A DNA stretch of 64,000 bases from Escherichia coli (GTDB lineage Bacteria > Pseudomonadota > Gammaproteobacteria > Enterobacterales > Enterobacteriaceae), in the NCBI GenBank assembly GCA_031701365.1, contig GCA_031701365.1_4118.1. One strand, written 5' to 3'. The translations under genes were made by a program, and so were the position numbers. Each line of letters begins with the position of its first letter. Position 1 is the first letter of the stretch. Shown piece after piece: positions 23,972 to 24,062 of the stretch. The notes beneath the pieces were generated by a model that was given only the letters and a program-made list of their open reading frames with translations, was not told where the DNA came from and searched no databases.

Positions 23972-23990
23972 AAATATTATCACAGTACTA

Positions 23991-24019
23991 TTGACATAGT
24001 TTGATAGTACTGGCATAAT
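23991..24019 (+). promoter_or_regulatory. sigma70-like promoter flanked by CAGTACTAT palindrome
   Basis: TTGACA-17-CATAAT; inverted repeat CAGTACTAT (23983-23991) / ATAGTACTG (24004-24012); ~90-bp cassette duplicated at 26921-27008. Confidence 0.6.
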
Positions 24020-24062
24020 AGATTTTATCAAGACGACACATATTAATTTAAGGAATACTAAA

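Follow-up and report, generated by a model that had tools for sequence, protein, structure and literature searches.

In T4-type phages, the ORFans of hyperplastic regions are flanked by promoter(early) stem-loop elements (PeSLs), cassettes of ~100 bp in which a sigma-70 promoter is combined with a stem-loop and which mediate modular shuffling and mini-circle formation (Arbiol et al. 2010, PMC2839356; Comeau et al. 2014, PMC4122927). The morons of lambdoid phages are self-contained promoter-gene-terminator units whose movement is attributed to illegitimate recombination in the absence of conserved flanks (PMC2839356). In the Rak2-like phage CBB, 18 RpoD-like promoters with a UP-like element were predicted using MEME (Buttimer et al. 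2017, PMC5259590). For phage fEgEco12, PhageTerm and restriction mapping established a terminal repeat of ~21 kb, in a paper that does not mention promoters (PMC13070987). Here, a stretch of 64,000 nucleotides (nt) deposited under Escherichia coli (assembly GCA_031701365.1, contig GCA_031701365.1_4118.1; hereafter the window) was analysed, with a focus on two nearly identical intergenic segments of 100 nt named cassettes A and B. We propose, with a probability of about 0.7, that A and B are recombining host-type promoter/leader cassettes belonging to a family of more than 30 members, and that their identity results from exchange and not from the copying of a promoter together with its gene.

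Results

Cassettes A and B in the terminal repeat of a jumbo coliphage

The window originates from an Asteriusvirus jumbo coliphage. Over positions 22000-28000 it is 98.6% identical to Escherichia phage PBECO4 and 91-95% identical to 121Q, CRJP21, BF17, vB_Ec-M-J and other Asteriusvirus jumbo phages. Segments 23970-24069 and 26916-27015 are identical at 93 of 100 positions in an ungapped alignment (self-BLAST, E 5e-36), and the pair was also detected in a repeat-finding scan (family D20). An earlier sequence-only reading of this DNA had described 23975-24062 and 26921-27008 as almost identical; this is confirmed, both segments being contained in the 100-nt repeat. The features of the two cassettes are as follows.

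23970-24069 (+): cassette A, from the stop codon of g23759 to the ATGGCTA of g24063, with an A/T-rich upstream stretch, promoter, leader, Shine-Dalgarno (SD) sequence and start codon
23991-24019 (+): sigma-70-type promoter of cassette A, with TTGACA at 23991-23996, a 17-nt spacer, TG at 24011-24012 and CATAAT at 24014-24019
23984-23989 and 24006-24011 (+): AGTACT copies of cassette A, one before the -35 hexamer and one in the spacer
24027-24062 (+): leader of cassette A, with the initial transcribed block ATCAAGAC, an A/U-rich unstructured stretch and the SD AAGGA at 24050-24054, 8 nt before the ATG at 24063
26916-27015 (+): cassette B, laid out as A, with TTGACA at 26937-26942, CATAAT at 26960-26965, SD at 26996-27000 and ATG at 27009
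26930-26935 and 26952-26957 (+): AGTACT copies of cassette B
24063-24386 (+): gene g24063 (phrog_6246), predicted to be driven by cassette A
27009-27188 (+): gene g27009 (phrog_9374), predicted to be driven by cassette B; unrelated to g24063

A consensus scan gave, at 23991 and 26937, -35 and -10 hexamers matching the sigma-70 consensus at 11 of 12 positions with 17-nt spacing. In both cassettes the -10 is extended by a TG before the second hexamer (TGgCATAAT), giving the sequence TGGCATAAT. A and B do not differ in the -35, in either AGTACT copy, in the extended -10, in the SD or in ATGGCTA, and the seven mismatches are located in the spacer (three), the discriminator (two) and the leader (two). 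Transcription from cassette A is predicted to start at about A24027. The leaders of A and B have a fold energy of -0.5 kcal/mol and no hairpin, and no hairpin is present upstream either. Both belong to the TGGCATAAT promoter sub-class, which is also predicted to drive small non-coding units. According to BLASTP and PHROGs, neither the upstream neighbours of A and B (g23759 versus g26704) nor the downstream ones (g24063 versus g27009) are related to each other, and the A/B pair is therefore not a promoter-gene duplication.

The two cassettes are placed inside the terminal repeat by the alignment of the genome ends of relatives and by an annotated repeat.

15904 to ~36096 (no strand): direct terminal repeat of ~20 kb, delimited by homology to relatives

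Position 1 of the CRJP21 and vB_Ec-M-J records, which start at the physical genome end, aligns to window position 15904, and the end (21525) of the annotated 21,525-bp direct terminal repeat of vB_Ec-M-J corresponds to about 36096. The repeat contains ~47 small genes separated by spacers of 80-100 nt; just past its end, genes are tightly packed and overlap. From 17557 to 35183, a consensus/regex scan of the + strand identified 33 consensus sigma-70 promoters, a density of about one per 540 bp, each standing 5' of a small ORFan, and returned only weak matches elsewhere.

Mosaic structure of cassette B

Cassette A is conserved at its own locus (96-100% among relatives; 100% in PBECO4 and CRJP21, 98% in 121Q). 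For cassette B, the promoter part (nt 1-62) and the leader part (nt 63-100) gave different results. In the window, A and B match at 57/62 and 36/38 positions of these two parts, respectively. The window B is identical to the PBECO4 B over nt 1-62 (62/62), as are the 500 nt upstream (500/500), whereas nt 63-100 are replaced in PBECO4 by a different leader that is 9 nt shorter. Compared with the 121Q B, it matches at 59/62 and then 38/38 positions; within 121Q, B and A match at 57/62 and 37/38. The short B leader of PBECO4 was also found in CRJP21, BF17 and vB_Ec-M-J, where the likeness of A and B ends after cassette nt 62. The A/B identity of 93% is thus limited to the window phage and to 121Q-like alleles, and is missing from PBECO4, the closest relative. 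Since the window B consists of nt 1-62 of PBECO4 type followed by a leader of 121Q/A type, the ~100-bp identity was created by recombination inside the cassette.

26978-27017 (+): recombination patch in cassette B, covering leader, SD and first three codons; 121Q/A type in a PBECO4-type background

The tract measures 40-82 nt; PBECO4-type sites delimit it on the left (26977 or before) and on the right (27060). An A-type leader would once have been copied onto a B cassette by ectopic exchange, and the resulting B allele would later have been patched into a PBECO4-like genome. The preferred joint would lie just past the point where transcription is predicted to start (ATCAAGAC, cassette nt 62-68). 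This joint recurs elsewhere. In 121Q, BF17 and vB_Ec-M-J, the match of the extra cassette copies is limited to nt 1-67/68; cassette matches cover nt 1-68 in phAPEC6, UE-S1, ph0011 and E9.1, and nt 1-63 in A7_1. In E9.1, another leader and a g24063 homologue at 35% identity come after the promoter half, and in A7_1 the promoter half of cassette A precedes a g20453-like gene.

Gene turnover between relatives

Single genes showed a patchwork of presence and absence among six relatives (g18097, g20453, g20750, g21052, g25345, g28387, g29038, g30404 and g34393). Three junctions were examined base by base. The first concerns a module that is either present or absent.

28341-28760 (+): module of 420 nt, with the -10 of promoter P28330, a leader, the GNAT acetyltransferase gene g28387 and the -35 of promoter P28747

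This module is missing in PBECO4 and BF17, which carry instead a single hybrid promoter that joins the -35 of P28330 to the -10 of P28747 at the correct spacing of 17 nt. At the second junction, PBECO4 has a gene insertion of 232 nt with AAAAGTACT repeats on either side. The third is a 'gene plus cassette' indel of 206-210 nt joined at SD/ATGGCTAT microhomology. Overall, 32 of 35 alignment breakpoints were intergenic or at most 25 nt from a gene end (43% expected; P 2.5e-9).

Occurrence in other phage groups

Cassette A was found in 42 phage records, mostly Asteriusvirus with 3-10 places per record, plus Erwinia phage Hallingskeid and three Vequintavirinae. For the hairpin-type cassette described below, 60 records gave a match, among them further Rak2-like jumbo phages infecting Salmonella, Klebsiella, Erwinia, Serratia and Yersinia. 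When IMG/VR was scanned for the exact pattern of the cassette core, 121Q was the sole match. In Escherichia phage A7_1, a 145-kb member of the Vequintavirinae unrelated to the window phage, positions 1450-6650 correspond to window 17500-27000. This segment carries seven homologous small genes at 70-89% nt identity (g20453-, g20750-, g23444-, g23759-, g26704-, g26268- and g21807-like) as well as both promoter-cassette types, in an order of genes and cassettes that differs from the window. In phiWec179/181/186 (154 kb), the coding part of g27009 is shared without the cassette.

The AGTACT palindrome

AGTACT occurs 253 times in the window (19.6 expected) and 129 times in the terminal repeat (6.3 expected), and is the only strongly over-represented palindromic hexamer (12.9x; next 1.9x). 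Counted from the -10 hexamer, it has the fixed positions -27 and -7/-8, in ~15 promoters each. In coding sequence, 45 copies were counted against 2.7 expected (17x), in all three frames. The palindrome is densest in 10000-36000 and absent from 36000-40400 and 44000-50000; the dense zone ends with the terminal repeat. Among seven resolved recombination joints, three coincide with AGTACT; this count was made by eye without statistics and is about what the non-coding density of AGTACT would give. Between ~50200 and 59500, several sequences seem, by eye, to share a ...EEYYFQxSTVY... motif in which Ser-Thr is always encoded by AGTACT, which accounts for part of the excess outside the repeat. A literature search for AGTACT in this phage group found nothing relevant. 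Several palindromic hexamers have zero copies in the whole window, namely CCATGG (9.8 expected), CAGCTG (6.4), AGGCCT (5.3), CGATCG (3.8), GGTACC and CGTACG, which is consistent with restriction avoidance.

Duplicated terminators and paralogous genes

The sequence-only reading had explained this region by growth through duplication of promoter-gene modules, on the basis of the cassettes, a terminator duplicated at 22445-22477 and 23180-23208, three pairs of early paralogues and a 'MAII family' (23444, 23759, 27009). Comparison of the window with itself by self-BLAST did return similarity at the cassette and terminator coordinates. The terminators form a 57-nt repeat at 93% identity.

22428-22484 (+): terminator repeat, copy 1, with stem-loop 22445-22466 and T-run, 3' of g22128
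23163-23219 (+): terminator repeat, copy 2, with stem-loop 23180-23201 and T-run
18325-18654 (+): promoter and DUF7249 gene module (g18413), co-duplicated with 20366-20694
20366-20694 (+): second promoter and DUF7249 gene module (g20453), not in 121Q and CRJP21
18739-19005 (+): g18739, short paralogue of g31049 (phrog_8127)
31049-31444 (+): g31049, long paralogue of g18739 (phrog_8127)
30626-30949 (+): g30626, paralogue of g24063, behind the hairpin-type promoter 30542, of another class than cassette A

The stem-loop AGCCCACCTTAAACAGTGGGCT and its T-run are identical at 22445 and 23180, and both copies are intrinsic terminators with a 7-bp stem (5 G-C pairs), an 8-nt loop and a TTTTTTG tail. 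They bracket a module made of promoter P22525, a long leader and g22676. The three gene pairs are indeed paralogous by BLASTP, with one PHROG per pair: g18413/g20453 (63% amino acid (aa) identity, E 3e-34; phrog_871, Pfam DUF7249, PF23907), g18739/g31049 (34%, E 1e-19; phrog_8127) and g24063/g30626 (37%, E 9e-27; phrog_6246). In two of the three pairs the promoter-gene module is duplicated, as judged from the sequence: 18325-18654 and 20366-20694 are 76% identical over 334 nt, from 88 nt before the ATG to the stop codon, and 18647-18818 and 30944-31128 are 70% identical, beginning ~92 nt before the ATG of g18739/g31049. Both DUF7249 paralogues are also present in A7_1 (91% and 78% aa identity), so the copies are old and/or horizontally exchanged and do not reflect recent local growth.

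The 'MAII' genes do not constitute a family. Pairwise BLASTP of g23444, g23759 and g27009 gave no match or E 7.5, and the three genes fall into three different PHROGs (13850, 35559 and 9374). Their common N-terminus is due to a conserved start context, ATG GCT, used by 11 of the 47 genes of the repeat region; ATGGCTATYAT is also a recombination junction. Of the duplication account, then, what stands is that the region is modular, that it contains duplicates and that two paralogue pairs have co-duplicated upstream DNA. It fails for cassettes A and B, whose flanks are unrelated, and gain, loss, replacement and conversion through recombination at conserved regulatory cassettes account better for the general pattern than simple duplication does.

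Other promoter classes, leaders and small units

In 24 of 35 promoters of the region, the transcribed leader contains a G-rich/C-rich hairpin of 7-9 bp (~+5 to +30) without U-run; A and B have none. The hairpin GGGGAGAA-loop-TTCTCCCC and its variants (e.g. 25627-25646, 23717-23736) mostly start 11-14 nt after the -10 (range 5-14). Individual folds and a stem table revealed compensatory pair changes at stem positions 4, 6, 7 and 8. RNAalifold on a MAFFT alignment of 22 leader hairpins, an alignment that is not structure-aware, gave no consensus. Candidate roles of the hairpin are protection of the mRNA 5' end, a protein-binding site, or a pause/attenuator. In four composite units (26046-26084, 30089-30127, 32682-32720 and 34605-34644), the -35 TTGACT and the promoter spacer form part of a terminator-like hairpin (AAAGGGATTGACTCCGGTCAGTCCCTTT).

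Ten small units consist of a consensus promoter followed ~22-27 nt on by the invariant motif CCCAYNGGGTGC (10 matches versus 0.42 expected).

19408, 26111, 27796, 30149, 32747 and 34666 (+): units with promoter and invariant motif CCCAYNGGGTGC
16993, 17209, 19465 and 21630 (-): units with promoter and invariant motif CCCAYNGGGTGC

Minus-strand copies are located on the left and plus-strand copies on the right, with one convergent, overlapping pair (19354(+)/19526(-)). They are kept at syntenic positions in all Asteriusvirus loci (nine each) and are absent from A7_1. RNAalifold on the ten units gave only a 4-bp invariant CCC/GGG hairpin without covariation; some units show by eye a first small hairpin with a GAGAAA-type loop. 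They had no Rfam match in the scan of the whole window, and may be small RNAs or protein-binding sites. A likeness, seen by eye, of AGTACTGTATAAT and the hairpin motifs to a LexA box and to lambda nut/boxB was dropped: only a half-site is present, and minus-strand units face away from genes.

A structured leader of ~85-100 nt is present in three copies (19606-19690, 30261-30345 and 22558-22642). Its closing stem is AUCAGG...CCUGAU, for which the third copy has the compensatory AUCAAG...CUUUGAU, and in two of the three a second promoter lies between leader and gene.

The left ~1.7 kb of the terminal repeat (15904-17580) is non-coding and may be linked to packaging or to the genome termini. It contains many AGTACT copies, two minus-strand CCCAY units and an 8-bp tandem array at 16650-16809 (AAACGGCT and GGATGGCT variants). 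Four GATC sites (TGATCA-type palindromes) are clustered within 31 nt at 27830-27860, in a 330-nt non-coding gap just 3' of a CCCAY unit; the window average is 2.25 GATC/kb. Outside the repeat, ten large open reading frames (ORFs) of 358-433 aa are arrayed on the minus strand at 787-11661, a region annotated as RCC1-like/DNA condensation protein in PBECO4 and 121Q. Repeats at 85-94% identity cover the ~110-nt upstream and N-terminal regions of these ORFs (3072, 4280, 5531, 6796, 8016, 9227 and 11618). This is presumably what the sequence-only reading called the larger arrays. Scans of the whole window for tRNAs and Rfam families gave no match.

Discussion

According to the reading proposed here, the cassettes would give nearly every small ORFan of the terminal repeat its own transcription and translation start, in what is presumably the first region to be expressed by the host RNA polymerase. 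We infer promoter activity and early timing from the promoter consensus and the context. Being conserved between non-conserved genes, the cassettes would also act as homology patches, and recombination at them, probably by homologous or microhomology exchange as in T4-type PeSLs, would insert, delete or replace single genes and swap cassette halves. Such exchange could take place among alleles of co-infecting relatives, between non-allelic cassettes and across phage genera.

Several points weigh against this proposal. The P value of the breakpoints is no proof of a hotspot: selection by itself, by removing recombinants with broken genes, would leave breakpoints at gene borders and give the same trend. 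Switches between PBECO4-type and 121Q-type sequence also occur inside genes (27125/27161 and 27362/27371), so allelic recombination is pervasive and not confined to cassettes. The deletion joint predicted for A x B recombination was absent from all 42 matching phage records when searched with a chimeric query. A and B are devoid of the stem-loop (terminator/attenuator next to the promoter) that defines PeSLs. Finally, searches of the literature on Asteriusvirus promoters and transcriptomes gave no transcript, start-site or timing data for this phage group.

Other explanations were considered. One, possible though doubtful and compatible with the reading proposed here, is that the cassette is an operator-promoter on which a dimeric phage or host regulator binds two AGTACT sites, 22 bp apart and close against the -35 and -10 elements, and switches the genes of the repeat off or on jointly, a shared regulation that would keep the cassettes alike. 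This agrees with the AGTACT excess in window and repeat, unique among palindromic hexamers, and with its fixed promoter positions. A simple operator nevertheless leaves the excess unexplained, with 45 copies inside coding sequence in all frames and many far from promoters; neither a candidate binding protein nor relevant literature was found.

It is unlikely that the region grew by tandem or segmental promoter-gene duplication, A and B being the promoter parts of modules whose genes have since diverged. The two paralogue pairs with co-duplicated upstream regions show that such events have occurred, and the extra cassette copy of vB_Ec-M-J, BF17 and 121Q, which takes in the last ~25 nt of the gene before it, resembles a local duplication of gene end plus cassette. 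For A and B, however, flanking genes without similarity and of different PHROGs surround a cassette that is 93% identical, and a complete loss of similarity between duplicated genes is incompatible with 93% identity being retained over 100 nt that consist mostly of unconstrained spacer and leader. Moreover, the true paralogue of g24063 stands behind another promoter class, and the A/B leader identity is absent from PBECO4.

We consider it very unlikely that A and B were kept alike independently, without any transfer, by strong purifying or convergent selection. Every recognised functional element is identical between them, the seven differences being confined to spacer, discriminator and leader, and the fixed AGTACT positions suggest an extra constraint. 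But the very different, shorter leader in the orthologous B cassettes of four relatives indicates that the leader sequence is not obligatory, and other promoters of the same region are just 60-88% alike. A discrete patch in otherwise PBECO4-identical DNA (500/500, 62/62) is furthermore the signature of exchange.

An autonomous small mobile element inserting its own copies, either homing-type or like a miniature inverted-repeat transposable element, would account for dispersed copies in three phage groups but is highly improbable, given that the cassettes showed no terminal inverted repeats or target-site duplications (no systematic search was made), that no associated nuclease or transposase gene was identified, that the borders are exactly a stop codon and a start codon, and that copies share halves and not whole units.

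As a speculation that we regard as improbable in its entirety, the terminal repeat could be an integrase-less 'ORFan integron' shared by unrelated large coliphages, in which cassettes serve as exchange sites and AGTACT (13-20x over-represented and fixed at the edges of the -35 and -10) as the putative site of a phage factor coupling early control to shuffling. It would extend to Asteriusvirus, Vequintavirinae and an Erwinia jumbo phage, and the candidate factor would be a regulator, a nuclease or a DNA-organising protein.

Exchange at cassettes would explain the patchwork of tiny ORFans that differ between near-identical isolates of 350-kb phages, as each gene would move together with, or between, portable expression signals, and these signals would also provide the homology on which exchange depends. 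For annotation, true gene starts and ~33 promoters can be placed. The cassette borders would be natural, expression-competent insertion points for the engineering of therapeutic jumbo phages, and differences in gene content among host-takeover or anti-defence candidates could be read as cassette exchange.

Comparison with known systems

The cassettes resemble PeSLs in being conserved intergenic units of ~100 bp with an A/T-rich upstream stretch, a near-consensus sigma-70 promoter, an SD and a start codon. Like PeSLs, they are closely spaced among the small ORFans of plastic regions, coincide with the insertions, deletions and replacements that distinguish close relatives, and occur in chimeric form at the junctions. 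Recombination between neighbouring PeSLs yields deletions and mini-circles; here, a hybrid promoter marks the place of the missing GNAT module, and the A x B deletion joint was seen in 0/42 records. In contrast to the PeSL hairpin, which lies upstream of or inside the promoter as a terminator, the hairpin of 24 of 35 neighbours is in the transcribed leader and has no U-run. Only the four composite units (26046, 30089, 32682, 34605) have the -35 and spacer in a terminator-like hairpin, a layout which is that of the RB49 PeSLs. The setting also differs, the cassettes being carried by an Asteriusvirus jumbo phage in a long direct terminal repeat and decorated with AGTACT. Because A and B lack the defining stem-loop, they are a PeSL-like variant and not a member of the class.

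Phage T5 has a long direct terminal repeat with small pre-early/early genes of host-takeover type, whose very strong consensus promoters are used by the unmodified host RNA polymerase. No sequence relationship with T5 is known, about one promoter per gene is present here, and the two-step DNA transfer is a feature of T5 of which there is no evidence here. Module P22525-g22676, bracketed by two identical terminators, is reminiscent of a moron, with the difference that conserved flanking cassettes supply homology. In CBB, from a related clade, the predicted consensus sigma-70 promoters are concentrated before short hypothetical ORFs, some of them in a ~22-kb terminal repeat (PMC5259590); cassette classes, leader hairpins, AGTACT and cassette-mediated shuffling do not appear in that paper (PMC5259590). 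Modular shuffling of PeSL type being already established in T4-type phages, the present result extends a known mechanism and a familiar phage mosaicism. The most unusual part of this locus, and a possible lead to something new, is the excess of AGTACT together with the conserved small promoter-driven units.

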